The notes below the pieces were generated by a model that saw only the letters and a list, made by a program, of their open reading frames with translations, searched no databases and had not been told where the DNA came from. Positions 3,134 through 55,704 of a DNA stretch of 64,000 bases are shown piece after piece. The position numbers and the translations under genes were made by a program. Origin of the DNA: Paludibacteraceae bacterium (lineage in GTDB: Bacteria > Bacteroidota > Bacteroidia > Bacteroidales > Paludibacteraceae); NCBI GenBank assembly GCA_024692565.1, contig JAILMN010000030.1, positions 43-64,042 of the forward strand. The letters run 5' to 3'. Each line of letters opens with the position of its first letter. Position 1 is the first letter of the stretch.

Positions 3134-3952
3134 TTAATGAAGCGGGATGTGGTGGGACTGTTTGTAGTGCTTGAGGCGGAGGGTCATTTCGTTCCGGGTC
3201 TGCGGCGTGCAGAAGGTTTGAACGAAGCGCTCCCAGATATATTGGATCGCCAGCGAAGAAGGATGCACCAGGTCGTCCGCGTAAAAACGATAGTCACGCA
3301 GTTCGTCCAGCATGATTTCGTAGGAGGGGAAATAAGATGGGGTGAGTTCTTCGATGGCTTGCAGCAGGGTGGCTTTGCTCAATTGATTCTCATGCAGACC
3401 GTCTTTGATGTGCCGAATCGGTGAGACGGTGAAGAGCCATTTTTTGTCTGCATAACGTTCCAAAAGCGGTTTCCATGCTGCCACTATCTCCTCGACGCTC
3501 AGGCGCCTGCGAGTGAAAGTGCTCTCCGGCAACTTATGACAATTGCCCACGATCTGCCCGTTCATCTCATACACCCAAGCGGTGCCGAACGTGACGATGA
3601 TGACCGTCGCTTCTTCCAACGCGTGCTGCATCGTAGTTATCGAATCGGCTACTGCCTGCTCCGCTTCGATCTTGTCAGCACGCGAGAACGAACCATGATG
3701 CGCCATCGAGTGCCATAAACCTTCGTGGTAAACCAATGGAAGATTGGAGATTGAAGATTGAAGATTGATGGCATTCGCAATCGAAAGCGGGTTATACAGC
3801 GTGCCAAAGGGGTTACAAGTGACGTTCAAGCCGCGTTGCATCATCTGCTCGCCCATCGAGTCCGCGAAACACGAACCCAACATGAGGATGTTGTCCTCAA
3901 AGCCGATTTTCCACGGCGACGGAGCAATATCAACTATCGTTTGCAGTTTCAT
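3134..3952 (-). CDS. GSCFA family protein
   Basis: Literal LGSCFAD motif near the N-terminus; 272-aa ORF. Confidence 0.8.
   Translation of the reverse strand: MKLQTIVDIAPSPWKIGFEDNILMLGSCFADSMGEQMMQRGLNVTCNPFGTLYNPLSIANAINLQSSISNLPLVYHEGLWHSMAHHGSFSRADKIEAEQAVADSITTMQHALEEATVIIVTFGTAWVYEMNGQIVGNCHKLPESTFTRRRLSVEEIVAAWKPLLERYADKKWLFTVSPIRHIKDGLHENQLSKATLLQAIEELTPSYFPSYEIMLDELRDYRFYADDLVHPSSLAIQYIWERFVQTFCTPQTRNEMTLRLKHYKQSHHIPLH
3741..3768 (-). repeat. heptamer array AGATTGR x4 inside the GSCFA CDS
   Basis: agattgg agattga agattga agattga. The coding strand reads TCAATCT/CCAATCT and encodes NLQSSISNL. Confidence 0.9.
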
Positions 3953-3960
3953 CTTACACC

Positions 3961-5193
3961 TTACTCAAAATGCATCACTTTCGCAGGACTGATCTTACTG
4001 ATGATGACGGACGGCAACAGCAGTATGAGCAACGAGAACACGATCGTCAGCACATTGAGCGCGATAATCCACCCCCACGCAAAGACAATCGGCACACTGC
4101 TCACATAGTACGTAGCGGCATCGAGCGGCATCACATGACCGAAATACTGCACCGTTGCCAAACCCAAACCGAGGATATTTCCCCACAGCACACCTTTGCC
4201 GATGAGCATCGCCGCTTGCGTTAGGAAGATGCGCTGCACGAAGCGGTTGTCGGCTCCCAGGGCTTTGAGCGTACCAATCAGTTGCACGCCGTCCAGAATC
4301 AAGATAATCAGTCCCGACACCATGTTAAACCCTGCCACCAAGAGCATCAGAATGATGATGACGATGACATTCATGTCGAGTAGATCGAGCCACGCGAAGA
4401 TAGCCGGATTCTGCTCCTGCAGCGTCTGGACGTAATAGACATTATAGCCGTTCTCGTCCATCTGATGCACGGTAGCGAAGAACACTTTGTCTGCCACCTC
4501 GTCCAAATGCGCGATGTCGTCTATCAGCACCTCGACACCCGAATAGGTGTTCTTCTCCCAACCTTGCAAGCGCCGCGCCGTTTCCAAGGGCGTCAACACA
4601 AACAGGTCATCAAACTGACCGAAACCGGTGTCATACAATCCGACAATCTTAAAACGCCGTGCCCGGACGTCTGTCTCATCCACGAAATAACTGTTCACCG
4701 CCTCGCCTACCCGCAACTGCAGCGCTTGCGCTGTAGCCCGCGAAACCAATATCTCTTGCGGCGAAGAAGGCAATGTGCCTTCGATGATGTTGTGCGCAAA
4801 GAAGTCCCAATAGTCCGTGCCTTTAAGCACCATGCCGTGAAAAGAAGAATCGGTCTTGAGCATGCCGGGCTTGGTGATGAACGGCGCGGCAGAAACCACA
4901 TGTTCATAACTGCCCAGCGCCGCCAGCAACGAGTCGGACACGTCTATCGGATGCAGGTCGTAGGTGTTGTTGTTATCGAACGAAACGACCTGTATATGTG
5001 CCCCGAAACCGGCTACTTTATTCGTCACCGTTTGCTTGAATCCCACCACGATACAGATGGTCAGAATCATCACCATCACACCTACGATGATGCCCGCCAA
5101 AGCGACCCGCACAGCAGGACGCGCATTGCGCGTCTTACCTTGTTGCGAAAAATAAAGTCGCATTGCAAGCATTATTTCCGGCATTTTTTGCAT
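3961..5193 (-). CDS. ABC transporter permease, FtsX/LolE-like
   Basis: N-terminal TM, a large periplasmic domain, then a C-terminal FtsX-type 3-TM bundle. Start chosen at M14 (MQKMPEIM...); alternatives lie within about 30 nt. Confidence 0.8.
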   Translation of the reverse strand: MQKMPEIMLAMRLYFSQQGKTRNARPAVRVALAGIIVGVMVMILTICIVVGFKQTVTNKVAGFGAHIQVVSFDNNNTYDLHPIDVSDSLLAALGSYEHVVSAAPFITKPGMLKTDSSFHGMVLKGTDYWDFFAHNIIEGTLPSSPQEILVSRATAQALQLRVGEAVNSYFVDETDVRARRFKIVGLYDTGFGQFDDLFVLTPLETARRLQGWEKNTYSGVEVLIDDIAHLDEVADKVFFATVHQMDENGYNVYYVQTLQEQNPAIFAWLDLLDMNVIVIIILMLLVAGFNMVSGLIILILDGVQLIGTLKALGADNRFVQRIFLTQAAMLIGKGVLWGNILGLGLATVQYFGHVMPLDAATYYVSSVPIVFAWGWIIALNVLTIVFSLLILLLPSVIISKISPAKVMHFE

Positions 5194-5224
5194 TTTCGGC
5201 ACGATTTTTGTAGTGATTTTGTAT

Positions 5225-5635
5225 ATGTACAAACGGTTTTTATTTATCTTAGCGGGTTTGATGAGTGCTATACTCTCTTTGGCCCAGGTGCCACCTCAGG
5301 AGCGGCCTCAGCGTACGCCGGAGGAGGAAGCTCAGAAGCAGACGATGCGGTTGTGCCGCGAATTGGGTATCAAGGACTCCGTGCGTATCGATACCATCTA
5401 TCGGATGCACCTCAAGTATGCTCGTGTACGGCAGAAAGGACTGACGCGGCAGGAGAATATGGAGCGGATGCAGGCCATCTACAATGAGTTGAAACTGCTG
5501 CTCACGCCTGAGGAATTCGAGCTGTTCATGAATCACCCTGTGGAGCAGCCTCGCCGCCCGAAGGGAGCCAATGTAACTTCGAAACCGGATATCGTAGTGA
5601 TACAAAAACAAGCACCGCAAAAAGCGAGCCGATGA
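5225..5635 (+). CDS. small secreted helical protein (DUF4890/Spy-like guess)
   Basis: Signal peptide MYKRFLFILAGLMSAILSLAQ followed by a charged helical region with LTPEEFELF. The 3' end overlaps the convergent PAP2 gene. Confidence 0.5.
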   Translation: MYKRFLFILAGLMSAILSLAQVPPQERPQRTPEEEAQKQTMRLCRELGIKDSVRIDTIYRMHLKYARVRQKGLTRQENMERMQAIYNELKLLLTPEEFELFMNHPVEQPRRPKGANVTSKPDIVVIQKQAPQKASR

Positions 5636-6116: not shown

Positions 6117-6817
6117 TCGTTTGCAAGTACGGCAGTATGGCAGGCTACAACAGCTGCGGTCTCTGTGCGCAGACGACTGTTACCCAAACTGACAGGCTGA
6201 AAACCGTTCTTTAAAGCCCACTCTACTTCTGCCGGCGAGAAATCGCCTTCCGCGCCGATGAGCACGGTGGTCTGATGTCCACGTACCACGCGGTCTTTTA
6301 AGGCACGTTTGCTGTCCGTCGCTTCGTACCCTTCGATACAATGCGCGATGAACTTATCGCCGTCCACCTGCAGATTCGTCATCTTCGTCATGGGGTGCAA
6401 TATCGGGAAACGCGTCTTGAGGCTCTGTTTAGCCGCAGCCACGACTATCTTCTGCAAGCGCTCGAAGTTCACCGTCTTGCGCTCCGAATGGTCGCAAAGC
6501 AGCAGCGTGATCTCATCCGCACCTATCTCCACACATTTCTCCAGCGCCCACTCCGTGCGGTCGATGTTCTTGGTTGGTGCCAACGCTATATGTACCTGCC
6601 CTTCGTGCAGCGGTGACGGCATCTCCACGGACTCAATGCGCAGCTCGCAATGCTTGCGATGCGGATTGGTGATGACGCAGTGGTACAGATGCCCTATGCC
6701 GTCCGTGACACAGATGGTATCACCTGCCGTGCGACGCAACACCTGCACGCAATGCCCGCTCTCCTCTTCGGGAAGCGTCAACGTCGTCTCAATATCAGGG
6801 GCGTAAAAAAGGTACAT
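6113..6817 (-). CDS. rsmE: 16S rRNA (uracil1498-N3)-methyltransferase
   Basis: 234 aa with an N-terminal PUA-like region and a C-terminal SPOUT region typical of RsmE. ATGA overlap with the downstream PAP2 gene. Confidence 0.8.
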   Translation of the reverse strand: MYLFYAPDIETTLTLPEEESGHCVQVLRRTAGDTICVTDGIGHLYHCVITNPHRKHCELRIESVEMPSPLHEGQVHIALAPTKNIDRTEWALEKCVEIGADEITLLLCDHSERKTVNFERLQKIVVAAAKQSLKTRFPILHPMTKMTNLQVDGDKFIAHCIEGYEATDSKRALKDRVVRGHQTTVLIGAEGDFSPAEVEWALKNGFQPVSLGNSRLRTETAAVVACHTAVLANE

Positions 6818-6819
6818 TG

Positions 6820-6868
6820 ACGATTGACGATTGACGATTTACGATTTACGATTGACGATTTACGATTT
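6820..6868 (-). repeat. heptamer array ACGATTK x7 filling the prfA-rsmE spacer
   Basis: Seven contiguous units run from the prfA stop (6867-6869) to 2 nt before the rsmE start (6815-6817). Confidence 0.95.
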
Positions 6869-7967
6869 ATAATTCCGATTCTTTCAGTCGTTCTGCGTTC
6901 TCGGCTACCTGCAGCGCATCGATGACACCTTGGATGTCGCCGTCCATTAAGGCCGCGAGGTTATATACGGTATAGCCTATACGGTGGTCGGTGATACGTC
7001 CCTGCGGGTAGTTGTACGTACGAATCTTGGCACTGCGGTCACCCGTCGAAACCATCGTCTTACGTCTTGCCGCGATGTCGTCAATATATTTCTGGTGCTC
7101 TTTGTCGTAGATCTGCGTACGCAGACGACTCAATGCCCGCTCCTTATTCTTCGGCTGGTCGCGCGTCTCGGTACATTCAATCAATATCTCTTGCACCTCA
7201 CCCGTGTTGGGGTTTTTCCAGTTATAACGCAGTCGCACACCCGACTCCACTTTATTCACGTTCTGTCCTCCTGCACCGCCTGAACGGAAAGTCTCCCACT
7301 TGATTTCTCCTTCGTTGATGTGCACTTCAAACTCATCGGCTTCGGGCAACACTGCCACCGTCGCAGCTGACGTATGCACGCGTCCTTGCGTCTCCGTCAC
7401 CGGAACACGTTGCACACGATGCACCCCCGACTCGTACTTGAGTGTGCCGTACACATTCTCACCCGTCACATTGAAGATAATCTCCTTGTAACCGCCTGCC
7501 GCACCTTCGTTAAACGACGAAACGGAGTACTTGAAACCCTTGATCTCGAAATACTTGGTGTACATACGGAAAAGGTCTCCGGCGAAGATAGCCGCCTCGT
7601 CACCGCCCGTACCACCACGAATCTCCATTACCACGTTCTTTCCGTCTTCGGGGTCTTGCGGCAACAATTGCAATTTCAACTCCTCTTCCAACTTCGGAAT
7701 CTGCGGCTCGAGTTCGTCTATCTCTGCCCGCGCCATCTCTTTCATCTCCGGGTCGTCCTCCGTATGAAAAAGATCCTTTGCGTCCTGCAGCTCCATCACG
7801 GCTTTCTTATAGCGATGCGCACACTCGAGCACGCGCTCGAGGTCGTGGTATTCACGGTTCAGACGCACATACCGCGCCTGATCGGCTATCACCGCAGGGT
7901 CGGTAATCAGCAGACTCACCTCATGGAACTTCGCCTCTAATCCGTCTATCTTATCGAGAATGTTCAT
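6867..7967 (-). CDS. prfA: peptide chain release factor 1
   Basis: GGQ motif (SGGAGGQNVNKV) and RF1-type PVT tripeptide. Confidence 0.95.
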   Translation of the reverse strand: MNILDKIDGLEAKFHEVSLLITDPAVIADQARYVRLNREYHDLERVLECAHRYKKAVMELQDAKDLFHTEDDPEMKEMARAEIDELEPQIPKLEEELKLQLLPQDPEDGKNVVMEIRGGTGGDEAAIFAGDLFRMYTKYFEIKGFKYSVSSFNEGAAGGYKEIIFNVTGENVYGTLKYESGVHRVQRVPVTETQGRVHTSAATVAVLPEADEFEVHINEGEIKWETFRSGGAGGQNVNKVESGVRLRYNWKNPNTGEVQEILIECTETRDQPKNKERALSRLRTQIYDKEHQKYIDDIAARRKTMVSTGDRSAKIRTYNYPQGRITDHRIGYTVYNLAALMDGDIQGVIDALQVAENAERLKESEL

Positions 7968-7995
7968 ACACCTTACACATTACACCTTACACTTA
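7968..7995 (-). repeat. heptamer array ACACNTT x4 spanning the folD 3' end and the folD-prfA spacer
   Basis: acacctt acacatt acacctt acactta begins right after the prfA start codon. It contains the folD stop and encodes the folD tail YKCKV. Confidence 0.9.
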
Positions 7996-8882
7996 TACGC
8001 TTGCAGCGTATTCTGTAATAGCGAAACAATCGTCATGGGGCCTACTCCACCCGGCACAGGACTGATATACGCAGCTTTCTGCGATACGTGCTCAAAGTCC
8101 ACATCGCCGACGAGCCTGTACCCGCGCGGAGCATTCGCATCGTCCACACGGTTGATACCCACGTCGATAACCGTCGCTCCTTCGCGTACCATTTCGGCTG
8201 TCAGCAGACCCGGACAACCGGCTGCTACGATGATGATGTCGGCGGTCAAACAGATTGACTTCAGGTCTTGCGTCTTCGAGTGACAGATCGTCACCGTCGC
8301 GTCACCCAACGAAGCGGCGCTCATGCCCGGCAGACTCAGATACGGACGTTGCATCAACAATATCGCCATCGGTTTTCCGACTATGTTCGAACGACCGATG
8401 ACCACCACGTGCTTGCCTTCCGTCGCGATGTCGTAGCGCGCCAACAGTTCGCGTATACCACGCGGCGTGGCACTCACGATAGACGGCAAGCCTTGCACCG
8501 TGCGTCCTACGTTCTCCGGCGTCAGACCGTCCACATCTTTGCGGTAATCAATCGCCGAAAGGATGGTCGTCTCGGTGATGTGCGAAGGCAGCGGCAACTG
8601 CACGATGAAACCGTCAATAGACGGATCGTTATTCAAACGATGCACTTCGGCCAACAGCGTCTGCTCCGTGATCTCTTCCGGGTAAGCGATTTTCTCTGCC
8701 TCTATACCCACTTCGGCACACGCCTTCAACTTATTGTTCACATACGTCTCGCTCGCAGGATTATGTCCCACGATGACGATCGCTAACTTCGGCACACGCT
8801 TACCTGCCGCCTTCAGCGCCTCTACCTGCTCGCGTATCTCCCCGCGTATCTCCGCAGCTATTTTCTTGCCGTCAAGAATCAT
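7980..8882 (-). CDS. folD: bifunctional methylenetetrahydrofolate dehydrogenase/cyclohydrolase
   Basis: Full-length FolD pattern (MILDGKKIAAEIR..., GRSNIVGKP, PVPGGVGPMT). Confidence 0.95.
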   Translation of the reverse strand: MILDGKKIAAEIRGEIREQVEALKAAGKRVPKLAIVIVGHNPASETYVNNKLKACAEVGIEAEKIAYPEEITEQTLLAEVHRLNNDPSIDGFIVQLPLPSHITETTILSAIDYRKDVDGLTPENVGRTVQGLPSIVSATPRGIRELLARYDIATEGKHVVVIGRSNIVGKPMAILLMQRPYLSLPGMSAASLGDATVTICHSKTQDLKSICLTADIIIVAAGCPGLLTAEMVREGATVIDVGINRVDDANAPRGYRLVGDVDFEHVSQKAAYISPVPGGVGPMTIVSLLQNTLQAYKCKV

Positions 8883-8885
8883 TCG

Positions 8886-8903
8886 CTTTTACCTATTACC
8901 TAC
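8886..8903 (-). repeat. heptamer array CTNTTAC x2.5 (coding strand GTAANAG) in the ffh-folD spacer
   Basis: cttttac ctattac ctacg; contains the ffh stop (8896-8898). Confidence 0.7.
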
Positions 8904-12030: not shown

Positions 12031-12902
12031 TTATATTAAATTGGAATGGCGTAGAGATGTTACGTCGCTATCTTCCTTCGGTGGTCGCGCATACGACAGG
12101 TGCGGAGATAATCGTGGCGGATAATGGGAGTACGGACGACAGTTTGGAGGTGCTGCGCAAGGAGTTTCCGAGCGTGAAGACCATCGTATTGGATAAGAAC
12201 TACGGTTTTGCGGAAGGTTACAACCGCGCGATTGAGCAGGTGGACAGCGAGTACGTAGTGCTGCTGAACAGCGACGTAGAGACACCGGAGGATTGGTTAA
12301 CTCCCCTACTCGATTACATGGAGACGCACCCGGAGATAGCCGCCGTTCAGCCGAAGATACGGAGTTGGCGTCAACGCGATTACTTCGAGCACGCAGGTGC
12401 TGCAGGCGGGTACGTGAACCGGTTGGGGTATCCTTATTGCCGCGGTCGCGTGTTATGGCACGTGGAGCAGGACAAGGGTCAGTACGACACGATAGCCGAA
12501 GTAGATTGGACGTCGGGTGCCTGTATGTGTGTGCGCACGAGGGTATATAAGGAGTGCGGCGGCTTGGACGCGTCGTTTTTCGCGCACATGGAGGAGATCG
12601 ATTTATGCTGGCGCATGCGCAATGCGGGTTGGAAATTAGCCTGCATCCCGCAGAGCACGGTGTATCACCTCGGAGGGGGCTCGCTCAGCTACGAGAGTCC
12701 GCGCAAGACCTATCTGAATCACCGCAACAACCTGCTGATGATTCGCAAGAATATGCGTCATCCGGGAGGTGTGCTGTTTGTCCGCTTCTTCTTGGACTAC
12801 GCGGCGGCGCTGCTGTACCTGATGCAAGGACGATGGGAGGCATGCAAGGCAGTGTTCGCGGCGCGGAGGGATTTTCATAAAATGAAAATAAGTAATAGGT
12901 AA
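12009..12902 (+). CDS. glycosyltransferase family 2
   Basis: VIILNWNG...ADNGSTD...NSD GT2 (GT-A) motifs. Confidence 0.8.
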   Translation: MEMETSVIILNWNGVEMLRRYLPSVVAHTTGAEIIVADNGSTDDSLEVLRKEFPSVKTIVLDKNYGFAEGYNRAIEQVDSEYVVLLNSDVETPEDWLTPLLDYMETHPEIAAVQPKIRSWRQRDYFEHAGAAGGYVNRLGYPYCRGRVLWHVEQDKGQYDTIAEVDWTSGACMCVRTRVYKECGGLDASFFAHMEEIDLCWRMRNAGWKLACIPQSTVYHLGGGSLSYESPRKTYLNHRNNLLMIRKNMRHPGGVLFVRFFLDYAAALLYLMQGRWEACKAVFAARRDFHKMKISNR

Positions 12903-12919
12903 GAGGTAACAGGTAAGAA
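12892..12919 (+). repeat. heptamer array GTAANAG x4 in the GT2-serB spacer
   Basis: gtaatag gtaagag gtaacag gtaagaa, then t and the ATG. The GT2 stop (12900-12902) lies inside unit 2. Confidence 0.9.
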
Positions 12920-14149: not shown

Positions 14150-15106
14150 ATGGCATTTTTCGGACTATTCAGTAAAGAGAAAAAAGAGACACTGGACAAA
14201 GGCTTGGAGAAAAGCAAAGAGTCCGTGCTCAGTAAGATCGGGCACGCTATCGCGGGCAAATCAACTATCGACGACGATGTGTTGGATAACTTGGAAGAGG
14301 CGCTGATCACATCGGACGTAGGCGTAGAGACGACGCTGCGTATCATCGAGCGCGTGCAGGAACGCGTCAAACGCGACAAGTACGTAGGCACGGACGAGTT
14401 GAACCAACTGTTGGTGGACGAGATCGCCTCGCTGCTGCAGGAGAACAACGTGGAGGACGTATTGGATTTCAGCGCTCCCCTACCCGCCAAGCCGTATGTG
14501 GTGATGGTGGTAGGCGTGAACGGCGTAGGCAAGACGACGACCATCGGTAAGTTGGCATACCAATACAAAGCGGCAGGCAAAAAAGTGTACCTCGGTGCGG
14601 CAGATACGTTCCGCGCCGCTGCGGTAGAACAGCTGTGCATCTGGGGCGAACGCGTAGGAGTGCCGGTCATCAAGCAGCAGCAGGGTTCTGACCCGGCGTC
14701 GGTAGCCTTCGACACGCTGCAGTCCGCCAAAGCGAACGATGCCGACGTCGTGCTCATCGACACGGCGGGACGACTGCATAACAAGATCAACCTGATGAAC
14801 GAGTTGACGAAGATTAAGAATGTGATGCAGAAAGTGGTGCCCGATGCGCCGCACGATGTGATGTTGGTGCTGGACGGTTCGACGGGTCAGAATGCATTCG
14901 AGCAAGCGCGACAATTTACCGCGGCGACACAGGTGAGTTCGCTCGCTATCACCAAATTGGACGGCACTGCCAAAGGCGGCGTAGTGATCGGCATCAGCGA
15001 CCAGTTTAAGATTCCGGTGAAGTACATCGGCCTCGGCGAACAGATGACCGATCTGCAATGCTTCAACCGCGAAGAGTTTGTAAAATCGTTGATTTTGAAA
15101 GATTAG
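14150..15106 (+). CDS. ftsY: signal recognition particle receptor
   Basis: GVNGVGKTT, DTAGR and TKLDG motifs. Confidence 0.95.
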   Translation: MAFFGLFSKEKKETLDKGLEKSKESVLSKIGHAIAGKSTIDDDVLDNLEEALITSDVGVETTLRIIERVQERVKRDKYVGTDELNQLLVDEIASLLQENNVEDVLDFSAPLPAKPYVVMVVGVNGVGKTTTIGKLAYQYKAAGKKVYLGAADTFRAAAVEQLCIWGERVGVPVIKQQQGSDPASVAFDTLQSAKANDADVVLIDTAGRLHNKINLMNELTKIKNVMQKVVPDAPHDVMLVLDGSTGQNAFEQARQFTAATQVSSLAITKLDGTAKGGVVIGISDQFKIPVKYIGLGEQMTDLQCFNREEFVKSLILKD

Positions 15107-15139
15107 AGATTAAAAGGTTAGAGGATTAGAGGTAATAAA
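15101..15139 (+). repeat. 7/8-mer array GATTAGAG-like x5 after ftsY
   Basis: gattagag attaaaag gttagag gattagag gtaataaa. The ftsY stop (15104-15106) lies in unit 1. Confidence 0.8.
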
Positions 15140-19841: not shown

Positions 19842-21653
19842 TTAAAAGCCGAAGCTCAGACCGCAGGTAAACGTGAAATTAGCGCCCTGCAGAAAGAGCG
19901 GTGTATATTTATTCAGATAATAGTCTTTGAGCTCGTCGCCCGTCAGGTTCTTGGACGTCCCGTCTTCGTTCCATCCGCGGTCTTCACCTAAGATGCGATC
20001 GGAGGTCGGCAGGTATGCCCGCGCGTTGTTGTACGTGAAATCGACGTGCGCGTAGCAGTTGTTGAATACCTCATATACCGCACGGAAATTGACGATGTCG
20101 TTCCGCCAGATCTTCTCGCTGAACGGCTTCTGCGCAATGATCGGATTGGACGTCGAGCGGTATCCGGCGATGTACGAACGGATATATTCGTAGGCGCGGT
20201 ACTTGGTGTCGCAGGTATAGTCCAGCATCAGGCGCAAACCCCGCACCGGACGATACGACACCTGCACGTAGATACTCTGCGCGTTGTCGCCCATGTAGTG
20301 ACCCATGTTGTAGGAATTCGACGTGAAGTCCGTCACCTTGATCGAGTGCGTGTAGCAGGCGATATACGACCGCATGAACTCGCCCCGTATCGCCAGACCT
20401 TTCACCGGCCAACCGCTCCAGTTGAAGCCCACCAAGTACGACACCGGATTATGCTCCGGATTGGACGGCTTCAGACGAGCCAACTTGAATTCGTCCAAGA
20501 AGAACGAACCGTACAGCCGCAAGTGGTCCGTCGGACGCACCGTGATAGACGCAAACGCCTGCGAGTTCTGGTTCTCCGAACCCAAGCCTTTGGTCAGCAG
20601 ATGATCCAGCGATTTATAGAAGGCGATCGGAATGAAGTACGCCGCCTGAACCGTACGCTCCGCATACACGATCGAGTTACCGAACGAGAACTGAATATAC
20701 TTGCACGGCATGAACGTGAACATGTTCGCCGCCATGAATTTGTTCGCCGGACGGTACTCGCGCTCATTCACCCCTTCCGCGGCCCACTCCGAGTAGAAAT
20801 AGGTCGAATCCATCACATTGCTCGGCAGCCAGGCGTGGAAATAATCGAATTGGAACCATTTGCAGGGCGTCAGCTGCAGCGTCACCATCGGAACCGCCGG
20901 GTTATGAGCCGACAGGATATTCGAGCAATGCTGCGCGTCGCCCCATGTGATACGCTCGCGTTGGATACCGATCGAGCCCCACCATGCGTACAGCGCCAAA
21001 CCGCCACGCGAGTCCGAGAAATCGCCGCCGTAGTTAGCCTCTTTGTACTGCACGCCGGGATAATTATTCAGATACGTCGGCTTCGTGATACGCGAGCCTT
21101 CGTAGCCCAAACCGCTCCACGAGTTGTCGCGGATCGAACCCCAGATAGATACGTGGTGCGCAATGTCCATCTGGATCTCCGCGCCGTACCAGCGGTGCTG
21201 CAGCAGACCCTTCTTGTTGTACATCAGGTCCATACCGAGTATCGGACGAACGCGCATCTTGAATATCTTATCCTTCGTCAGGATGTGCAGACTCGGGTCC
21301 GCCAACGACAGGTTCGATACCGGCGTGATCCACTGCGTCACATGGCGATGACCGTAACTGTAGTACGTCGGCAGCGTGTCTAATTCCAAGGCATAGTCCT
21401 GCAGGTAGAATTGCAGATCGTCGCGCTGGCGCTTGCTCAGCAACGTGTCCTTGCGCTGCGCCTCGGCCAACAACCGAGCGATGTGATCACGCGTGTACGG
21501 CTTGATCGCCGCATTCGATTGAATCACACCGTCCGTCGTCAACTCCTCCAGAAAATCATAAATCTCCGTGTACTCAATCGCCTGAGGTATCCGTTGCGCA
21601 TGCACGCATAGCGCCACACTCGCTGCCAATACTATTGTGAGAAGTTTTTTCAC
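19842..21653 (-). CDS. capsule assembly Wzi-like outer membrane protein
   Basis: Signal peptide. The N-terminal IYDFLEELTTDGVIQ...PYTRDHIARLL helix pattern and a long beta-rich body resemble the Wzi family. GTG start at 21651-21653. Confidence 0.55.
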   Translation of the reverse strand: MKKLLTIVLAASVALCVHAQRIPQAIEYTEIYDFLEELTTDGVIQSNAAIKPYTRDHIARLLAEAQRKDTLLSKRQRDDLQFYLQDYALELDTLPTYYSYGHRHVTQWITPVSNLSLADPSLHILTKDKIFKMRVRPILGMDLMYNKKGLLQHRWYGAEIQMDIAHHVSIWGSIRDNSWSGLGYEGSRITKPTYLNNYPGVQYKEANYGGDFSDSRGGLALYAWWGSIGIQRERITWGDAQHCSNILSAHNPAVPMVTLQLTPCKWFQFDYFHAWLPSNVMDSTYFYSEWAAEGVNEREYRPANKFMAANMFTFMPCKYIQFSFGNSIVYAERTVQAAYFIPIAFYKSLDHLLTKGLGSENQNSQAFASITVRPTDHLRLYGSFFLDEFKLARLKPSNPEHNPVSYLVGFNWSGWPVKGLAIRGEFMRSYIACYTHSIKVTDFTSNSYNMGHYMGDNAQSIYVQVSYRPVRGLRLMLDYTCDTKYRAYEYIRSYIAGYRSTSNPIIAQKPFSEKIWRNDIVNFRAVYEVFNNCYAHVDFTYNNARAYLPTSDRILGEDRGWNEDGTSKNLTGDELKDYYLNKYTPLFLQGANFTFTCGLSFGF

Positions 21654-21688
21654 CTCTTACCTATTACCTTTTACCTATTACCTTACTC
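21654..21688 (-). repeat. heptamer array CTNTTAC x5 (coding strand GTAANAG) filling the OmpH-Wzi spacer
   Basis: ctcttac ctattac cttttac ctattac cttactc runs from the Wzi-like GTG start (21651-21653) to the OmpH stop (21683-21685). Confidence 0.92.
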
Positions 21689-23157: not shown

Positions 23158-24435
23158 ATGAGAATAAAGCCTTTTAAGGGTTTGAGGCCACCGAGGGAGA
23201 TGGTGGAACAAGTGAGCAGTAGGCCGTACGACGTGCTGAATTCGGAAGAGGCACGGGCGGAAGCGGCGGGCAATGCCAAGAGCCTATATCACATCATCAA
23301 GCCGGAGATCAATTTTGAGCCGGGTACGGATGAGCACGACCCGCGTGTGTATGCAGCCGCAGCCGAGCAGTTCGCCAAATTCAAGGCGAAAGGATGGTTG
23401 GTGCAAGATGCGGAAGAGAAGTACTACGTGTATGCGCAGACGGGTTTTGGGAAGACTCAATATGGTCTGGTGGTAGGTGCATGGGTGGACGATTATATCG
23501 AGGGTCGGATCAAGAAGCACGAGTTGACGCGTCGCGATAAAGAGGAAGACCGCATGAAGCACGTGCGCGTGTTGAACGCGAACATGGAGCCGGTTTTCTT
23601 TGCTTACCCGCACCGCGATGACTTGGATGTGATAGTAGCCGAGGTGGTGAAGCGTACGCCGGAGTACGATTTTGTGGCAGCGCCGGAAGGATTTCGACAC
23701 ACCTTCTGGGTGATCAACGACCGTGCGACGATTGACCGCATCACGGAGATCTTCGCTCAGATCCCGGCGATGTATATCGCAGACGGGCACCATCGTTCAG
23801 CTGCAGCTGCCGGCGTAGGAGCGGAGAGGAAAATGAACGCAGCAAAACTGCTCAATGATGGAATGAGCGCGACTACGTCGCTCAATGATGTTCCTGAATA
23901 CGAGTATTTCTTAGCGGTATGTTTTCCGGACAATCAGTTGAACATCATCGATTATAACCGCGTGGTGAAGGATTTGAACGGGTTGAGCGAGGAGGAGTTT
24001 CTAGAAGCCCTCAAAGAGGACTTCGATGTGGAATGTGTAATGTGTAATGTGTATAAGCCGCAGCGGTTGCATAATTTCAGTCTGTATTTGGGTGGAAAGT
24101 GGTACTCGTTGACGGCCAAGGAAGAACGGTATAATGATGCGGACCCGATAGGGGTGCTGGACGTCACGATATCGAGTAACCTGATTTTGGACAAGATATT
24201 GGGCATCAAAGATCTGAGGACGGAGAAGCGTATTGATTTCGTAGGCGGCATCCGCGGGTTAGGTGAGTTGAAGCGCAGAGTGGATAGCGGCGAGATGCGG
24301 ATGGCGTTGGCGCTTTATCCGGTAACGATGCAGCAGATCATTGATATCGCGGATAGCGGTAATATCATGCCGCCGAAGACGACGTGGTTTGAACCTAAAT
24401 TGCGCTCCGGGCTCGTTGTACATGAATTAAATTAG
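23158..24435 (+). CDS. DUF1015 domain-containing protein
   Basis: N-terminal IKPFKGLRP...RPYDV and ADGHHR motifs. Confidence 0.8.
   Translation: MRIKPFKGLRPPREMVEQVSSRPYDVLNSEEARAEAAGNAKSLYHIIKPEINFEPGTDEHDPRVYAAAAEQFAKFKAKGWLVQDAEEKYYVYAQTGFGKTQYGLVVGAWVDDYIEGRIKKHELTRRDKEEDRMKHVRVLNANMEPVFFAYPHRDDLDVIVAEVVKRTPEYDFVAAPEGFRHTFWVINDRATIDRITEIFAQIPAMYIADGHHRSAAAAGVGAERKMNAAKLLNDGMSATTSLNDVPEYEYFLAVCFPDNQLNIIDYNRVVKDLNGLSEEEFLEALKEDFDVECVMCNVYKPQRLHNFSLYLGGKWYSLTAKEERYNDADPIGVLDVTISSNLILDKILGIKDLRTEKRIDFVGGIRGLGELKRRVDSGEMRMALALYPVTMQQIIDIADSGNIMPPKTTWFEPKLRSGLVVHELN
24025..24052 (+). repeat. heptamer array RATGTGK x4 inside the DUF1015 CDS
   Basis: gatgtgg aatgtgt aatgtgt aatgtgt, encoding DVECVMCNVY. 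Same word as the coding-strand units of 7968-7995. Confidence 0.9.
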
Positions 24436-24480
24436 ATTTCTAGACGACTAGATGACTAGACGATTCGATGAGTAGACGAC
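24433..24480 (+). repeat. octamer array TAGAYGAY x6 spanning the DUF1015 stop, the spacer and the OmpA-family start
   Basis: tagatttc tagacgac tagatgac tagacgat tcgatgag tagacgac. Unit 1 holds the stop TAG; unit 5 holds the ATG at 24468. Confidence 0.9.
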
Positions 24481-26528
24481 TGGTTTACATAGTATTAGCG
24501 GCGGTGTGTTTGACAGGATGCAGCGTTCAGCAGCGGATCAAACGGGCGGATAAGAAATTCGCCATAGGGGAATACTACACCGCGGCGGATATATACAAGC
24601 AGTGCTACAGTCGTCTCTCGACGCAGAAAGACCGCGAGTTGAAGGGTTACGTAGCGTACAGGCAGGGCGAGTGCTACCGCATTCTCAATAACCCCAAAGC
24701 CGTCAACTGCTACCAGAGTGCGCTGCGATGCAAATACCACTTGCAGGACTCGACGATCTTCCTGCACGCCGGTCAAGCGCTGCAATATCAAGGTAAATAC
24801 AAAGATGCGGCGAAGAGTTACGAACTGTATCTCGAGGCGCATCCGAACGACTACGTGGCACGTGCGGGTAAGTACTCATGCAGTAAGATTGACGAATGGA
24901 AGAAAGAGGGTTCGCGCTACAAGGTGAGCGAAGCCAAGGAGTTTAATCAGAAGCGCACCAGCAGTTTTGCGCCTATGTTCATCGGTGACCAGACGGACGC
25001 GCTGATGTTCACGTCCAACCGTCCGGAGAAAGCGAAGACGGGTTCGAAGAAGATGCGTCGCCCGAGTAACGTAACCGGTCAGCAGTTGTTCCAGCTCTTC
25101 CAGACACGCAAGAACGCTGCCGGATTATGGGAAGACATCACGTTGGCGGAAGGACTGTACAACGCGCCGGACGAGTCGCAACAGGAGAATGACTCGACGG
25201 GCGGCAAGAACGCAGGTTCGGCAGAGATGGGTGTATGCTGCTTCACGCGCGACGGACGAACGATGTATTTCACCTATTCGAAGCCGATTAACGGTAAGGA
25301 CTTAGGTGCCAAGATTTGCCGCAGCGAACGCGCCAGCGGCGAATGGGGTGAGCCGCAAGAAGTGAAACTGTTTGCCGACAGTTCGATTACCGTGGGTCAT
25401 CCGGCGCTGAACGCATCCGGCGACACGCTTTATTTCGTGAGTGACGCAGCCGGTGGCGAAGGCGGTAAGGACATATGGATGGCGGAGCAGGACGGCGACG
25501 AATGGACGAACGTGCAGCCCTTGGGCAAAGGGATTAACACTTCTGCCGACGAGATGTACCCGTATATGCACGAAGACGGCACGCTGTATTTCGCATCGAA
25601 CGGTCATCCGGGTTACGGCGGACTTGATATTTTCAAAGCCGTGCGGGACACGACGCACAAAGACTCCACGGTCTGGGTGCTGTATAACATGGGTCCGATG
25701 TTCAACGGTATCGGTGACGACTTCGGAATCACCTTCGCCGGCAACACGCAGGACGGATTCTTCTCGTCCAACAAGGGCGACAAGAAAGGATTCGACCAGA
25801 TCTACCGCTTCACCTTGCCGGAGATGGAGTTCATTGCCGAAGGTATGGTGAGCGACGAAGCGGGTAATCCGATTACGGATGCGAAACTGCGTTTAGTGGG
25901 CTCGGACGGCACCAACAGCAAAGTGAACGCCCGTCGCGACGGCACGTACAAGATCAAGTTGAAACGCGATGTGAAGTATGTGATGTTAGCGACCGCCCGC
26001 GGTCACCTGAATGCCAAAGAGCAGTGGAACACCAACGGCTTGAAGGACAGCAAGACCTACACCATCAACTTCACGCTCAGCCCGATCAGTCGCCCCGTGA
26101 AGATGGACAACATCTTCTATGAGTTCGGCCGATGGGAGTTGACGAAAACTTCGGAAGAAGAGTTGAACAAGTTGGTTAAACTGCTGAACGACAACCCCAA
26201 TATCACGATTGAGCTGTCCGCGCACACCGATATGAAAGGTAATGAAGAGTTCAACCAGGAGTTGAGTCAGAAACGTGCGCAGAGTTGTTGCGATTTCCTC
26301 ATCGCGCACGGTATCGAGGCAGAGCGTCTGACGCCGCTAGGATACGGCAAGGCTAAGCCGGTGGTGGCAGACAAAGCGCTGAACAAACAATATCCGTGGT
26401 TGCCGGTTGAGCAAGTGCTGGACGAGGCATATATATCCGGTTTGCCGGCAGACAAGCAGGAGATTTGCAACCAAATCAACCGACGCACGGAATTTAAGGT
26501 GGTAAAAACCACATATAAACTATACTAA
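24468..26528 (+). CDS. OmpA family lipoprotein (TPR + TolB-like beta-propeller + OmpA C-terminal domain)
   Basis: Lipobox LTGC, WD40-like repeats, and a C-terminal NRRTEF peptidoglycan-binding motif. Confidence 0.85.
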   Translation: MSRRLVYIVLAAVCLTGCSVQQRIKRADKKFAIGEYYTAADIYKQCYSRLSTQKDRELKGYVAYRQGECYRILNNPKAVNCYQSALRCKYHLQDSTIFLHAGQALQYQGKYKDAAKSYELYLEAHPNDYVARAGKYSCSKIDEWKKEGSRYKVSEAKEFNQKRTSSFAPMFIGDQTDALMFTSNRPEKAKTGSKKMRRPSNVTGQQLFQLFQTRKNAAGLWEDITLAEGLYNAPDESQQENDSTGGKNAGSAEMGVCCFTRDGRTMYFTYSKPINGKDLGAKICRSERASGEWGEPQEVKLFADSSITVGHPALNASGDTLYFVSDAAGGEGGKDIWMAEQDGDEWTNVQPLGKGINTSADEMYPYMHEDGTLYFASNGHPGYGGLDIFKAVRDTTHKDSTVWVLYNMGPMFNGIGDDFGITFAGNTQDGFFSSNKGDKKGFDQIYRFTLPEMEFIAEGMVSDEAGNPITDAKLRLVGSDGTNSKVNARRDGTYKIKLKRDVKYVMLATARGHLNAKEQWNTNGLKDSKTYTINFTLSPISRPVKMDNIFYEFGRWELTKTSEEELNKLVKLLNDNPNITIELSAHTDMKGNEEFNQELSQKRAQSCCDFLIAHGIEAERLTPLGYGKAKPVVADKALNKQYPWLPVEQVLDEAYISGLPADKQEICNQINRRTEFKVVKTTYKLY

Positions 26529-27933: not shown

Positions 27934-29596
27934 GAAAATCATCTTTTCGATGGTGGGTGTAGGCAAGACCTTCCCGCCGCAGAAACGCGTACTCAATAAT
28001 ATCTATTTGAGTTTCTTCTATGGTGCCAAGATCGGTATCATCGGTTTGAACGGTGCCGGTAAATCGACGCTGATGAAAATCATCGCGGGTATTGAGAAAG
28101 AATACCAGGGCGAGGTGGTATGGGCCCCCGGTTACAGCGTGGGTTACCTCGAGCAAGACCCTAAACTGGACCCGAACAAGACGGTTCGTGAGGTGGTGCA
28201 AGAAGGTGTGCAACCGATCATGGACATGTTGAAGGAGTACGACGACATCAATATGGCGTTTGCGGAACCCGATGCGGATGTCGATAAGCTGTTGGCGCGT
28301 CAGGCGGAGCTGCAAGACAAACTCGATGCCGCTGACGCATGGAACATCGACCAGAAACTCGATCGCGCCATGAACGCGCTGCGTTGTCCGCCGGATGAGG
28401 CGAACGTCACTACCCTATCCGGAGGTGAGAGAAGACGCGTAGCATTGTGTCGATTGCTGCTGCAGCAACCCGATGTGCTGCTGCTCGACGAGCCGACGAA
28501 CCACCTCGACGCAGAGAGTATCGATTGGTTGGAGCAACACTTGCAACAGTACGCGGGCACGGTGATCTGCATCACGCACGATCGATATTTCCTGGATCAT
28601 GTAGCCGGTTGGATTTTGGAACTCGACCGCGGTGAAGGTATTCCGTGGAAAGGCAATTACTCGTCGTGGTTGGAGCAAAAGACCACGCGTATGGCGCAGG
28701 AGGAGAAACAGGCGAGCAAGCGTCGTAAGACCCTTGAGCGTGAGTTGGAATGGATTCATATGGCGCCGAAAGCCCGTCATGCGAAGCAGAAAGCACGTTT
28801 GGAAGCGTACGACCGCATGCTGAACGAGGAGCAGAAAGAGCGCGAGGAGAAGTTGGAGATATTCATTCCGAACGGTCCGCGTTTGGGTAATAAGGTCATC
28901 AACGCCGAGGGTGTAGCCAAATCGTTCGGCGACAGGTTGTTGTTCGAGGACCTCAATTTTATGTTGCCGCCTAACGGCATCGTAGGTGTGATCGGTCCGA
29001 ACGGAGCGGGTAAGACAACGCTGTTCCGGATGATCATCGGCACCGAGAAAGCGGACAAAGGTACGTTCTGCGTAGGCGAGACCGTGAAAATCGGTTACGT
29101 CGATCAGCAGCACACGGATATTGATCCCAATAAGTCGGTTTTTGAAACCATCAGTGGTGGTACGGAGTTCATTCGTGTAGCCGGTCGGGAGATTAATGCG
29201 CGTGCGTATTTGAGTCGATTCAATTTCACCGGTGCGGACCAAGAGAAGAAATGCGGTGTGTTGTCCGGCGGTGAACGCAACCGTTTGCATCTGGCGTTGA
29301 CGCTCAAGAGCGAAGCGAACGTGCTGCTGTTGGATGAGCCGACGAACGATATTGACGTGAACACGCTGCGTGCGTTGGAAGAAGGTTTGGAGAACTTCGC
29401 GGGTTGCGCTGTGGTTATCTCGCACGACCGTTGGTTCCTGGACCGCATCTGTACGCACATCTTGGCATACGAAGGTGAGGGCAAGGTGTTCTGGTTCGAA
29501 GGCAGTTATTCGGAGTACGAGGAGAACAAGAAAATGCGGTTGGGTGAAGAGGCCTGTGAACCGAAGCGAGCACGCTACCGCGGATTAACGGATTAG
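27920..29596 (+). CDS. ettA: energy-dependent translational throttle protein (ABC-F)
   Basis: Two ABC cassettes (GLNGAGKST, GPNGAGKTT), an EttA-type N-terminus and an arm linker. Confidence 0.93.
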   Translation: MADDKKIIFSMVGVGKTFPPQKRVLNNIYLSFFYGAKIGIIGLNGAGKSTLMKIIAGIEKEYQGEVVWAPGYSVGYLEQDPKLDPNKTVREVVQEGVQPIMDMLKEYDDINMAFAEPDADVDKLLARQAELQDKLDAADAWNIDQKLDRAMNALRCPPDEANVTTLSGGERRRVALCRLLLQQPDVLLLDEPTNHLDAESIDWLEQHLQQYAGTVICITHDRYFLDHVAGWILELDRGEGIPWKGNYSSWLEQKTTRMAQEEKQASKRRKTLERELEWIHMAPKARHAKQKARLEAYDRMLNEEQKEREEKLEIFIPNGPRLGNKVINAEGVAKSFGDRLLFEDLNFMLPPNGIVGVIGPNGAGKTTLFRMIIGTEKADKGTFCVGETVKIGYVDQQHTDIDPNKSVFETISGGTEFIRVAGREINARAYLSRFNFTGADQEKKCGVLSGGERNRLHLALTLKSEANVLLLDEPTNDIDVNTLRALEEGLENFAGCAVVISHDRWFLDRICTHILAYEGEGKVFWFEGSYSEYEENKKMRLGEEACEPKRARYRGLTD

Positions 29597-29627
29597 AGGA
29601 TTAGAGATTAGAGATTAGAAGTTAGAG
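29583..29627 (+). repeat. 7/8-mer array GATTAGA(G) x6 filling the ettA-tilS spacer
   Basis: gattaacg gattagag gattaga gattaga gattagaa gttagag, then the GTG. The ettA stop lies in unit 2. Confidence 0.92.
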
Positions 29628-30506
29628 GTGCTTCGCAGAGTTAGTACATATATTCGGCAGCGGGGATTGTTGGAGCAAGACAAGCCGGTTTTGGTAGCCA
29701 TCAGTGGCGGCGCAGACAGCGTAGCGTTGTTGGATGTGCTCTTGCGCGCCGGATATACGTGCATTGCAGTTCATTGCAATTTTCACTTGCGGGGCGCAGA
29801 GAGCGATCGGGATGAGGCTTTTGTGCGGGAACTTTGTGCAAAGCTGAATGTGCCGCTGGATGTGAAGCATTTTGACACGGTGTCTTATGCCCAAGCGCAT
29901 GAGGTGAGTATAGAAGTGGCGGCAAGAGAATTGCGCTATGCATGGTTCGATGAAGTGGCCAAAGCGCACGGATGTCAGGCTATTGCGGTAGCGCATCATC
30001 AGAACGATCAGGCGGAGACGATATTGCTGAATCTCAAACGCGGCACAGGTTTGCGCGGTTTGGCAGGTATGCGACCCGTCAGCAGCAATCCGATGGCGCC
30101 GGAGAGTATTAAAGTCGTACGACCGCTGCTCTGCACGACACGCGATTATATCGAGCATTACTTGCGTGACAAACGTCATCTAACGTGGGTGAACGACAGC
30201 ACGAATGCGGACATCGCGATCACACGTAATGCCGTGCGGGAACAGTTGAAGACATACAGCAAAGCGGAGATTGAGCACATGGCGCAGACCGCGGAATATA
30301 TGCAGGGGTATATTGACTTGCTGGACGGCAAAGCCACACGTGAGGCGGAACTGACGAAGTTATACGAACAACTGCGTGAGTACGGTTTTGCGGAGATTGA
30401 TAAGATTTACGACGCGTTGCAGCGAGGTGAAGGCGGCAAAACTTTCACGTCCAAAACGCACCGCGGCGTGATACGAAAAGGACAACTATGCGTCACTACG
30501 GTATAA
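29628..30506 (+). CDS. tilS: tRNA(Ile)-lysidine synthetase (short form)
   Basis: PP-loop SGGADS. GTG start directly after a repeat array. Confidence 0.85.
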   Translation: MLRRVSTYIRQRGLLEQDKPVLVAISGGADSVALLDVLLRAGYTCIAVHCNFHLRGAESDRDEAFVRELCAKLNVPLDVKHFDTVSYAQAHEVSIEVAARELRYAWFDEVAKAHGCQAIAVAHHQNDQAETILLNLKRGTGLRGLAGMRPVSSNPMAPESIKVVRPLLCTTRDYIEHYLRDKRHLTWVNDSTNADIAITRNAVREQLKTYSKAEIEHMAQTAEYMQGYIDLLDGKATREAELTKLYEQLREYGFAEIDKIYDALQRGEGGKTFTSKTHRGVIRKGQLCVTTV

Positions 30507-31201
30507 TAGGATATCCATTGGAGCATTCGTTTTCAGCGAAGTATTTCAATGAGAAATTTGCGGCAGAGCACATCGATGCCGAATACTCGTTGTACCCGGT
30601 TGCCGAGGCGGAGATTGCGCGACTGAAGGAATACATCGACACCTTGGACGGCATGAATATCACATTCCCGTACAAGCGCGCCGTTATTCCTTATTTAGAG
30701 CGTTTGGACGCAACGGCGCAAGCGATCGGTGCGGTGAACGTGGTGCATCGGCATGTAGGTTATAACACAGATTGTATCGGATTCATACAAGCTATCCAAC
30801 CGCTGCTGCGACCGGACGATCGAAAGGCACTAGTGTTAGGTACAGGCGGTGCATCCAAAGCCGTGTGTTACGGTTTGCGTCAGTTGGGTATCACGCCTAC
30901 GCTCGTTAGTCGCACACCGCAGGACGGGCAGATAGGTTACAGCGACTTGGATGCCGACATCATGGCGCAGCACACGATGATTATCAACTGCACGCCTTTA
31001 GGTATGTTGCCCGATACCGATACGTGTTCGCCGATACCGTACGAACATATTTCGGCACAACATTTGCTCTTTGATTGTGTGTACAACCCCGAAGAGACAC
31101 TCTTTTTGCGCAAAGGTAAAGCGCAGGGAGCGGCCACACACAACGGCATGCAGATGCTGATCGGGCAAGCAAAAGCAGCATGGGAAATATGGTCAAATTG
31201 A
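30488..31201 (+). CDS. aroE: shikimate dehydrogenase
   Basis: IIGYPLEHSFS...NITFPYK...LGTGGASKA pattern. Confidence 0.85.
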   Translation: MRHYGIIGYPLEHSFSAKYFNEKFAAEHIDAEYSLYPVAEAEIARLKEYIDTLDGMNITFPYKRAVIPYLERLDATAQAIGAVNVVHRHVGYNTDCIGFIQAIQPLLRPDDRKALVLGTGGASKAVCYGLRQLGITPTLVSRTPQDGQIGYSDLDADIMAQHTMIINCTPLGMLPDTDTCSPIPYEHISAQHLLFDCVYNPEETLFLRKGKAQGAATHNGMQMLIGQAKAAWEIWSN

Positions 31202-31243
31202 CATTTGACATTTTAGATTTTAGATTTTATATTTTAGATTAAT
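31198..31243 (+). repeat. heptamer array TTGACAT x2 + TTTAGAT x4 filling the aroE-DUF4831 spacer
   Basis: Unit 1 contains the aroE TGA (31199-31201). The array ends taat and then the ATG at 31244. Confidence 0.95.
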
Positions 31244-45239: not shown

Positions 45240-45241
45240 CG

Positions 45242-48155: not shown

Positions 48156-48175
48156 GATCGTTTTCAAATCTGCTG

Positions 48176-55672: not shown

Positions 55673-55704
55673 TTTAAAGAATTAAAGAGTTAACGAATTA
55701 ACGA
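55673..55704 (-). repeat. octamer array NTTAAMGA x4 filling the rubrerythrin-sod spacer
   Basis: tttaaaga attaaaga gttaacga attaacga, followed directly by the rubrerythrin stop (55705-55707). Confidence 0.9.

Follow-up and report, generated by a model that had tools for sequence, protein, structure and literature searches.

Why should the spacers between housekeeping genes consist of short tandem repeats, and do such repeats serve the genes that they separate? The question arises from a 64,000-nucleotide (nt) stretch of DNA from a Paludibacteraceae bacterium (NCBI GenBank assembly GCA_024692565.1, contig JAILMN010000030.1, positions 43 to 64,042), which we call the window. Here, the entire 49-nt spacer between prfA and rsmE is a heptamer array, (ATCGTMA)x7, at 6818..6866 on the minus strand (called at 6816-6867 by Tandem Repeats Finder, TRF). 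It lies between the prfA stop codon (6867-6869, minus strand) and the rsmE start codon (6815-6817) and reads, in the direction of the genes, ATCGTAA ATCGTCA ATCGTAA ATCGTAA ATCGTCA ATCGTCA ATCGTCA. An earlier note, made from the sequence alone, had listed this array together with others of period 7 or 8 at nine further junctions and had offered several possible functions. Our sequence comparisons favor a plainer answer: with a probability of roughly 60%, the arrays would be heptanucleotide and octanucleotide simple-sequence repeats (SSRs) driven by slippage, tolerated by-products rather than a new regulatory device.

Variation within a single species bears directly on how the arrays change. 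A FolD search placed the host among uncultured rumen Paludibacteraceae, with the best species-level relatives 80-84% identical in this protein. Through RsmE homologues at 88-99% identity, we reached same-species metagenome contigs whose DNA is 96-97% identical to the window (labels within L001-L106 denote related loci and contigs used for comparison). Across these contigs, the prfA-rsmE spacer is (ATCGTMA)n between identical flanks, with n = 0 in L081, L088 and L092 (GAATTGTAATGTACC, a TAATG stop/start overlap), 3 in L086, L087, L089 and L091, 4 in L085 and L090, 6 in L095, 7 in the window and in L082, where the A/C variants follow a different order, and 10 in L094. The prfA open reading frame (ORF) ends at the same stop in every allele. 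The hypervariable copy number that the earlier note had anticipated is thus real, and the steps of 7 between strains of one species agree with its suggestion of slippage-born repeats.

Within this operon, the length of three additional junctions also differs between strains (by 7, 14 or ~24 nt), so that the strain comparison called for in that note yields four variable junctions. The ffh-folD spacer measures 13 or 27 nt, with L086-L089 carrying 14 extra nt and four units, and the MacB-GSCFA spacer measures 8 or 15 nt, the longer form, with one extra heptamer, being found in six sister strains. At folD-prfA, L088 has no array and a 17-nt gene overlap, which we take as ancestral, and its FolD ends in LQAYHEHSR; the array allele has an insertion directly before the prfA ATG, and its FolD ends in LQAYKCKV. 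Arrays can rewrite the last codons of a gene and part genes that formerly overlapped. In alignments of up to 14 kb with the same-species contigs, all indels of at least 5 nt but one fell in tandem arrays, located in four heptamer junctions and two in-frame coding repeats. The lone exception is an in-frame indel of 21 nt (7 residues) inside folD, at 8337-8357, between the window and L088. At the rubrerythrin-sod junction, where the array is degenerate, the one close contig found (L106, SOD 97% identical) has an equal copy number with substitutions. Perfect arrays vary and the decayed array is constant, as expected for slippage.

The arrays are real and far from chance expectation. Nine intergenic arrays of period 7 or 8 were observed in the window, versus a mean of 0.07 and a maximum of 1 in 40 within-spacer shuffles, and arrays make up 9 of the 19 co-directional spacers of 9-70 nt. 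Our wider comparison set comprised the window and 80 related loci (1.34 Mb), scanned with TRF, and arrays of at least 2.8 copies were counted. Period 7 was the most frequent with 119 arrays, 86 of them intergenic, followed by periods 8 (31, 23 intergenic), 9 (30, 12), 6 (18, 4), 11 (12, 11), 5 (10, 4) and 10 (7, 5). Setting periods 7/8 against 6/9, as the earlier note had proposed, gave 86 + 23 versus 4 + 12 intergenic arrays. Its rule that the period is 7 or 8 and never a multiple of three describes the window well, and in the relatives these periods are dominant, not exclusive. The density of period-7/8 arrays was 1.11 per kb in co-directional spacers versus 0.034 per kb in coding DNA, figures that carry some error, like our other positional statistics, as the related loci were annotated with a rough, imperfect dicodon-model gene caller. 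(Two earlier callers were dropped; several genes, e.g., sod, had been mis-called.) Per junction, arrays were found at 9.0% of co-directional, 7.7% of convergent and 5.7% of divergent junctions. As these rates are alike, we rejected the idea that arrays are specific to co-directional junctions; the per-kb density is highest there because the spacers are short.

Between species, the arrays turn over quickly. The ffh-folD-prfA-rsmE-PAP2-MacB-GSCFA block is syntenic in ~10 species-level relatives, and at a given junction these have different units or no array. For example, the prfA-rsmE spacer holds a TAATTTT array in L004, TAACCYG in L005, AATTTTC in L006 and AATTCAC in L031; it is a 10-nt spacer with no array in L001, a 30-nt spacer with no array in L002 and a TAATG stop/start overlap in L008. 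Even among close relatives, array density is uneven and spans 0 to 0.56 per kb: several loci of Paludibacteraceae and Proteiniphilum are array-rich, and those of Muribaculaceae, Bacteroidaceae and Parabacteroides have almost no arrays. The different units at one junction and this patchy density exclude a sequence-specific conserved element, and the change of units likewise tells against arrays of specific binding sites, one of the functions that had been suggested. Together, species turnover of the units and variation between strains argue that the arrays are young, dispensable and slippage-driven.

The position of the arrays points to how they may become established. Of the 55 arrays whose slack was 40 nt or more, 16 were located within 6 nt of a stop codon versus 4.5 expected (P<5e-5), and closeness to a start was weaker (12 versus 7.1 expected, P=0.04). 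At convergent junctions, 9 of 10 arrays were within 12 nt of a stop, and at divergent junctions 1 of 7 was within 10 nt of a start. The earlier description, in which the first unit holds the upstream stop and the last abuts the next start, therefore stands for its first half; adjacency to the start codon, often seen in the window, is the weaker tendency.

We propose that the arrays originate by tandem duplication and grow and shrink by strand slippage, and that repeats whose period is not a multiple of three would persist wherever selection tolerates them. Heptamer duplication may happen everywhere, with selection removing the events that break a reading frame. Insertions into or just past a dispensable C-terminal tail would survive, and the array's first in-frame stop would become the stop of the gene. 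Strong stop-anchoring combined with weak start-anchoring would be expected because insertions at such tails are tolerated. The source of several units may be the final heptamer of the gene upstream, with its stop codon. Indeed, the terminal heptamer of the upstream gene equals the unit with at most one change at prfA (ATTGTAA in the array-less allele, ATCGTAA in the array) and at the MacB-like gene (GAGTAAG, with the unit GTGTAAG), and ffh ends in TAGGTAA, the ffh-folD unit itself.

Several observations weigh against this reading, beyond the error that imperfect gene calls bring into the positional statistics. When each consensus unit was compared with shuffles of its own letters, sense ATG proved scarce in spacer arrays (2 versus 12.1 expected) and was still depleted when spacer arrays and arrays called inside ORFs were pooled (9 versus 17.8, P=0.007); antisense ATG was also somewhat low (11 versus 16.1). 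The depletion is partly a classification bias, and it hints at some RNA-level constraint. Furthermore, an exact unit was common to 7.5% of array pairs from different junctions within genomes versus 0.79% between genomes (~9.5 times), a comparison in which the pairs are not independent and the P values are soft. In the window, such families comprise AGGTAAN at three junctions, GATTAGA at two, and GGTGTAA at two and in a related coding array. A 30-nt string, AGGTAATAGGTAAAAGGTAATAGGTAAGAG, is identical at the OmpH-Wzi-like junction of the window and the ffh-folD junction of L086-L089, junctions that are 12.8 kb apart, and with this identity purely local duplication fails as an explanation. Relative to transcription, family members also mostly point the same way (16 to 5 within genomes, 129 to 92 between genomes).

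Of the alternatives, the one that survives best, though we consider it unlikely, is that the arrays are tunable operon spacers. The number of units would set the distance between termination and initiation, and with it translational coupling, making the arrays heritable tuning knobs under second-order selection. In housekeeping operons, the arrays do replace TAATG and 17-nt overlaps with spacers of 12-70 nt, many alleles segregate within one species, and the depletion of sense ATG from spacer arrays would fit. At the rsmE start (-18 to +12), predicted opening energies span 7.5-8.0 kcal/mol in array-less alleles and 7.1-10.9 kcal/mol in alleles of 3-10 units. Across the data set, the median was 5.12 kcal/mol for starts with an array within 12 nt upstream (n=35), 5.10 kcal/mol for ordinary spacers of 15-90 nt (n=120) and 5.98 kcal/mol for overlaps or spacers below 8 nt (n=120). 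Starts behind arrays are thus predicted to be modestly more open than those behind overlaps or very short spacers (P=0.02), as tuning would have it, and do not differ from ordinary spacers (P=0.44). We therefore rejected, on these predictions at rsmE and across the data set, the possibility that arrays raise the accessibility of the start region, and with it the earlier suggestion of unstructured spacers that aid initiation; at starts, arrays appear to behave like any AT-rich spacer. In addition, the coexistence of alleles of 0-10 units at prfA and rsmE argues against a strong effect, and arrays also occur in convergent junctions and in ORFs, where coupling is irrelevant. Shine-Dalgarno-like 4-mers were not enriched in the units (5 versus 3.2 expected). 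Any effect on expression would probably be generic, that of any AT-rich sequence that lengthens the distance from termination to the following start.

A scan of the window for sigma-70 promoters and terminators gave, for sigma-70, nothing above shuffles, with a consensus that is unsuited to Bacteroidota promoters. On the antisense strand of the prfA-rsmE array, 6817-6873 (+), phased TTGACG-17 nt-TACGAT/TATAAT matches to the sigma-70 consensus can be seen; they are probably meaningless, as Bacteroidota promoters differ in type.

Less probable again, and in our view doubtful, is a dispersed family of copied repeats, in which ready-made arrays would be copied from gene end to gene end, whether through ectopic gene conversion, template switching or a dedicated enzyme. 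Such a family would resemble the short tandemly repeated repetitive (STRR) sequences or the TAACTGA repeats of Beggiatoa, possibly with an RNA-level role that fixes orientation. The excess of exact unit sharing within genomes, the 30-nt identity and the co-orientation described above all favor it, as does a 17-nt identity between the folD-prfA and MacB-GSCFA arrays. Similarly, arrays of TAACTGA, TAGCTGA, TAATTGA and TAAATCG recur across genera (true TAACTGA arrays are present in L029 and L078 and absent from the window). The ettA-tilS and ftsY arrays have 14 nt in common, and the coding array in DUF1015 has a 13-mer in common with the folD-prfA array. However, unequal exchange between a pair of shorter alleles of the ffh-folD locus can also yield its longer allele, and several units differ from the terminal heptamer at their own site by no more than one base. 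We saw neither a candidate enzyme nor a mobile element, and the non-independence of array pairs softens the statistics. Ectopic copying is suggested by these data rather than shown.

In some spacers, two arrays of one heptamer family stand in opposite orientation (L029, 2987-3062; L062, 17578-17740; and the ffh-folD junction of L040 and L059), for example (TCAGTTA)n followed by (TAACTGA)n. Such pairs would form long hairpins in RNA or single-stranded DNA.

We give a slim chance to the idea that the arrays form an actively propagating, transcription-oriented repeat system, copied between gene ends, and that slippage-driven changes in their length would serve populations as a rheostat of translational coupling. 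This idea draws on the 30-nt identity, the genome-specific unit families and the co-orientation. A dedicated function of the arrays is not supported, and active copying or tuning retains a minority case through the unit families that junctions share.

The arrays might also be stop ladders, selected to halt read-through or frame-shifted ribosomes in all frames before the next gene. We regard this as improbable, although stop codons are plentiful. Spacer arrays contained 59 sense stops versus 50.6 expected from shuffled units (P=0.008; TAA alone, 44 versus 31.1), antisense stops were not enriched (42 versus 47), and 6 of the 10 window spacers close all three sense frames, with 37 sense versus 23 antisense stops among the ten. 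The claim that every unit carries a stop codon fails already at the prfA-rsmE array, where 4 of 7 units (ATCGTCA) lack a sense stop and where two of three sense frames are closed as against all three antisense frames; among 88 arrays in co-directional spacers of the relatives, 18 lack any sense stop. In the same arrays, all three frames are closed in 39 of 88 on the sense and in 31 of 88 on the antisense strand. What had been described as an orientation rule valid on both strands is a tendency only: sense stops exceed antisense stops in 43 arrays and fall below them in 27. Moreover, arrays called inside ORFs deviate in the opposite direction (13 sense stops versus 18.8 expected), and once they are pooled with the spacer arrays, the total of 72 is close to the 68.9 expected from composition and the enrichment is gone. 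Array-less alleles exist as well. Stop-rich arrays would be found in spacers because of a filter: stop-free units can persist in ORFs and stop-bearing ones cannot. We infer that the stop-richness of spacer arrays reflects survivorship and need not be design.

Improbable too, and a shade below stop ladders, is a role as mRNA sites for a single-strand-binding protein with a footprint of ~7 nt, of the S1 or cold-shock protein (Csp) type, which would recruit ribosomes as MacGregor proposed for TAACTGA. The period fits the cold-shock protein footprint cited in PMC4679880, many arrays end a few nt from a start codon, and their sense strand is A-rich (38% A). On the other hand, the units are not conserved between species at one junction, anchoring is to stops rather than starts, and the arrays are dispensable. 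An assembly or sequencing artefact, a possibility that the earlier note had itself raised, is of negligible probability: short-read assemblers can mis-size repeats, but the arrays are at most 70 nt long, current short-read platforms read beyond that length, and independent ENA, Logan and NCBI assemblies give the same alleles, in clean multiples of 7 between identical flanks.

Returning to slippage-driven SSRs as the preferred explanation, we inspected the individual arrays of the window. At nine of the ten listed sites, TRF found arrays of period 7 or 8; the tenth, ffh-folD, has two units in the window and four in sister strains. On the minus strand, (GGTGTAA/TGTGTAA) x ~3.7 at 7967..7992 forms the 12-nt folD-prfA spacer and also codes for the end of FolD (KCKV and the stop). 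The ffh-folD junction has (TAGGTAA)x2 at 8883..8903 (-), located at the ffh stop in a 13-nt spacer and without a TRF call. (NAGGTAA) x ~4.3 at 12887..12918 (+) takes in the final codons of the GT2 gene with their stop, together with the 18 nt that separate this gene from serB. A period-8 array of ~4 GATTAGAG-like units begins at the ftsY stop codon, 15101..15132 (+); this junction is convergent, which corrects the earlier description and means that there is no downstream start codon. The 29-nt spacer between the OmpH and Wzi-like genes is occupied by (AGGTAAN) x4.6, 21652..21684 (-), and the GTG start at this junction is backed by the L005 orthologue. Between the DUF1015 and OmpA-family genes, CTAGACGA (period 8) x5.2 at 24440..24481 (+) lies in the spacer and extends 14 nt into the downstream ORF. 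(GATTAGA) x ~6, 29582..29628 (+), runs from the last codons of ettA to a putative GTG start of tilS, a start that is uncertain, with an alternative ATG at 29667. The 42-nt spacer between aroE and the DUF4831 gene contains (ATTTGAC)x2 followed by (ATTTTAG)x4.4, 31198..31240 (+). Finally, the octamers TCGTTAAT/TCGTTAAC/TCTTTAAT/TCTTTAAA lie at 55674..55701 (-) in the 36-nt rubrerythrin-sod spacer. Here, too, the earlier note needed correction: the minus strand encodes both rubrerythrin (55705-56280) and SOD (55072-55668), which makes this a co-directional stop-to-start spacer. An eleventh site, absent from that note's list, is the MacB-GSCFA junction, where GAGTAAG GTGTAAG at 3953..3967 (-) lies at the stop of the MacB/FtsX-like gene; the spacer ahead of GSCFA measures 8 nt. 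The gene names used in the note agreed with NCBIfam and Pfam family matches for RsmE, PrfA, FolD, Ffh, SerB, FtsY, OmpH, Wzi-like, DUF1015, OmpA-family, TilS-like, DUF4831, rubrerythrin and SOD.

Arrays also occur inside genes, where heptamers read in frame yield short variable peptide insertions. AATCTTC x4.3 at 3739..3768 (-) lies inside the GSCFA coding region (residues 61-71). Orthologous arrays are present in L004 and L005 and absent from six other orthologues, and the array adds a net 3 or 5 residues relative to array-less orthologues. This led us to reject the notion that coding arrays are clean 21-nt insertions (1+3 units). The GSCFA orthologue of L031 also bears a heptamer array, at 13098-13142, and many more coding arrays were found in the relatives. 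In the window, ATGTGTA x4 at 24026..24053 (+) is in frame in the DUF1015 coding region (residues 290-299). Tandem repeats of other periods are seen in a Ser/Gly/Ala-rich gene on the minus strand, 15172-16518, which has in-frame 30-nt and 18-nt repeats at 15263-15357 and 15578-15618; L085 differs from the window in this gene by exactly one 30-nt unit and one 18-nt unit. Arrays of period 10 or 11, near the helical repeat of DNA, are located at 1373-1432, 45379-45420, 47475-47535 and 36908-36959, with the units GGGATATTTA/TTTTGGGCAC, ATTTTTTTGC and ATCGGGGTTTT; most are in long non-coding regions, and one 11-mer array is coding.

Other features of the window stand apart from the arrays. The region 48000-56000 is low in GC (42-45% versus ~52% elsewhere) and includes a 1294-residue ORF, 49601-53485, with 69- and 138-nt tandem repeats. 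The SOD next to this ORF has best database matches at 96-97% identity, one of them named Prevotella, and the region may have been acquired horizontally. A cluster of 22 contigs among the SOD matches (P0169) differs in the gene upstream, and its 39-nt spacer is constant and holds no array. At 5213-5635 (+), opposite the operon strand and overlapping the 3' end of the PAP2-like gene, lies a conserved 140-residue ORF whose DNA is conserved in all syntenic relatives and which is annotated as a gene in public contigs. No Rfam family fits the arrays in the window, where the sole match above the gathering score was a tRNA-Val (anticodon TAC) at 45241-45316 (-), also the only ARAGORN match. Exact-protein look-ups of PrfA, rubrerythrin and RsmE of the window gave no match in the contig index, and a scan of JGI metagenomes with the prfA 3' end (GAAAGAATCGGAATTRTAA) returned 45 loci that were chance matches or prfA of other species, with no same-species allele.

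The arrays are a major source of indels and of changes at gene ends in rumen Paludibacteraceae and related Bacteroidales, altering C-terminal residues, as in FolD, and parting formerly overlapping genes. They will confuse the annotation of starts and stops as well as strain typing, and they offer ready-made strain markers for metagenomes. Bacteroidota make no use of Shine-Dalgarno pairing, and the natural prfA-rsmE series of 0-10 units could serve in this phylum to test the effect of spacer length on re-initiation. If the arrays were functional, a minority view on present evidence, they would add a new layer of expression variability to core operons, and on the rheostat idea housekeeping operons would carry this variability built in.

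How do the arrays compare with known repeat systems? Phase-variable contingency loci, with SSRs in the promoters or ORFs of surface genes, likewise undergo reversible copy-number change by slippage. In contrast, the arrays described here are found between housekeeping genes rather than in promoters, for the most part not in ORFs either, and produce no on/off frame switch. The STRR of heterocystous cyanobacteria are heptamer families with the consensus units CCCCAGT, TTGGTCA and CAACAGT, and to our knowledge have not been described as stop-anchored fillers of operon junctions. Both systems consist of a few genome-specific heptamer families spread over many intergenic sites; however, the present host belongs to the Paludibacteraceae, and its units are AT-rich and unrelated to the STRR consensus.

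Heptamer arrays that separate the same genes in strains of Xanthomonas vary extensively in both length and sequence (Rehm 2015, PMC4692102). Occasional inverted pairs are common to our arrays and to the GGGAATC (Xanthomonas) and GGGGAYT (Nostoc) repeats treated there, but those are G-rich and quadruplex-forming, whereas the units here are AT-rich and diverse. The earlier note knew of no heptamer arrays in Bacteroidota. In fact, MacGregor (2015, PMC4679880) reported TAACTGA arrays that shortly precede start codons, in forward orientation, from Beggiatoaceae, cyanobacteria and five Bacteroidetes, Paludibacter propionicigenes among them, and proposed binding of S1 or Csp. Like the TAACTGA repeats, our arrays are intergenic heptamers with stop triplets in the unit, in hosts that make little use of Shine-Dalgarno pairing. 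A forward orientation close to start codons is often seen in the window as well, but in long spacers the proximity to starts is weak. They differ in that each junction in the window has its own unit or small family, none of them TAACTGA, in their anchoring to the upstream stop rather than the start, and in their copy-number series among strains. For rumen Bacteroidales, our literature searches found no description of this array pattern.

The closest likeness is to the long SSRs of Mrazek, Guo and Shah (2007). As summarised in PMC4679880 and PMC4692102, that work found heptanucleotides to be the most abundant long SSRs in most prokaryotic genomes, with repeats that are not multiples of three lying outside genes, and proposed polymerase slippage over a contact of ~7 nt. 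By the same summaries, both sets have head-to-tail units, a dominant period of 7, a patchy distribution among lineages, a location mainly outside genes when the period is not a multiple of three, and a proposed slippage origin. Three marks of long SSRs are seen here: tandem arrays beyond chance (3-7 copies by TRF), whole-unit changes between strains and concentration in non-coding DNA. In comparison with the long SSRs so summarised, the present arrays sit at stop codons, often fill the spacers of housekeeping operons and account for roughly every second co-directional spacer of 9-70 nt in the window. Neither of the two summaries names rumen Paludibacteraceae or other Bacteroidales among the repeat-rich genomes. 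The arrays thus belong to the known class of heptanucleotide SSRs, and what is distinctive about them is their stop-anchoring, their filling of operon junctions, their rewriting of gene ends and an allelic series of 0-10 units in core genes.

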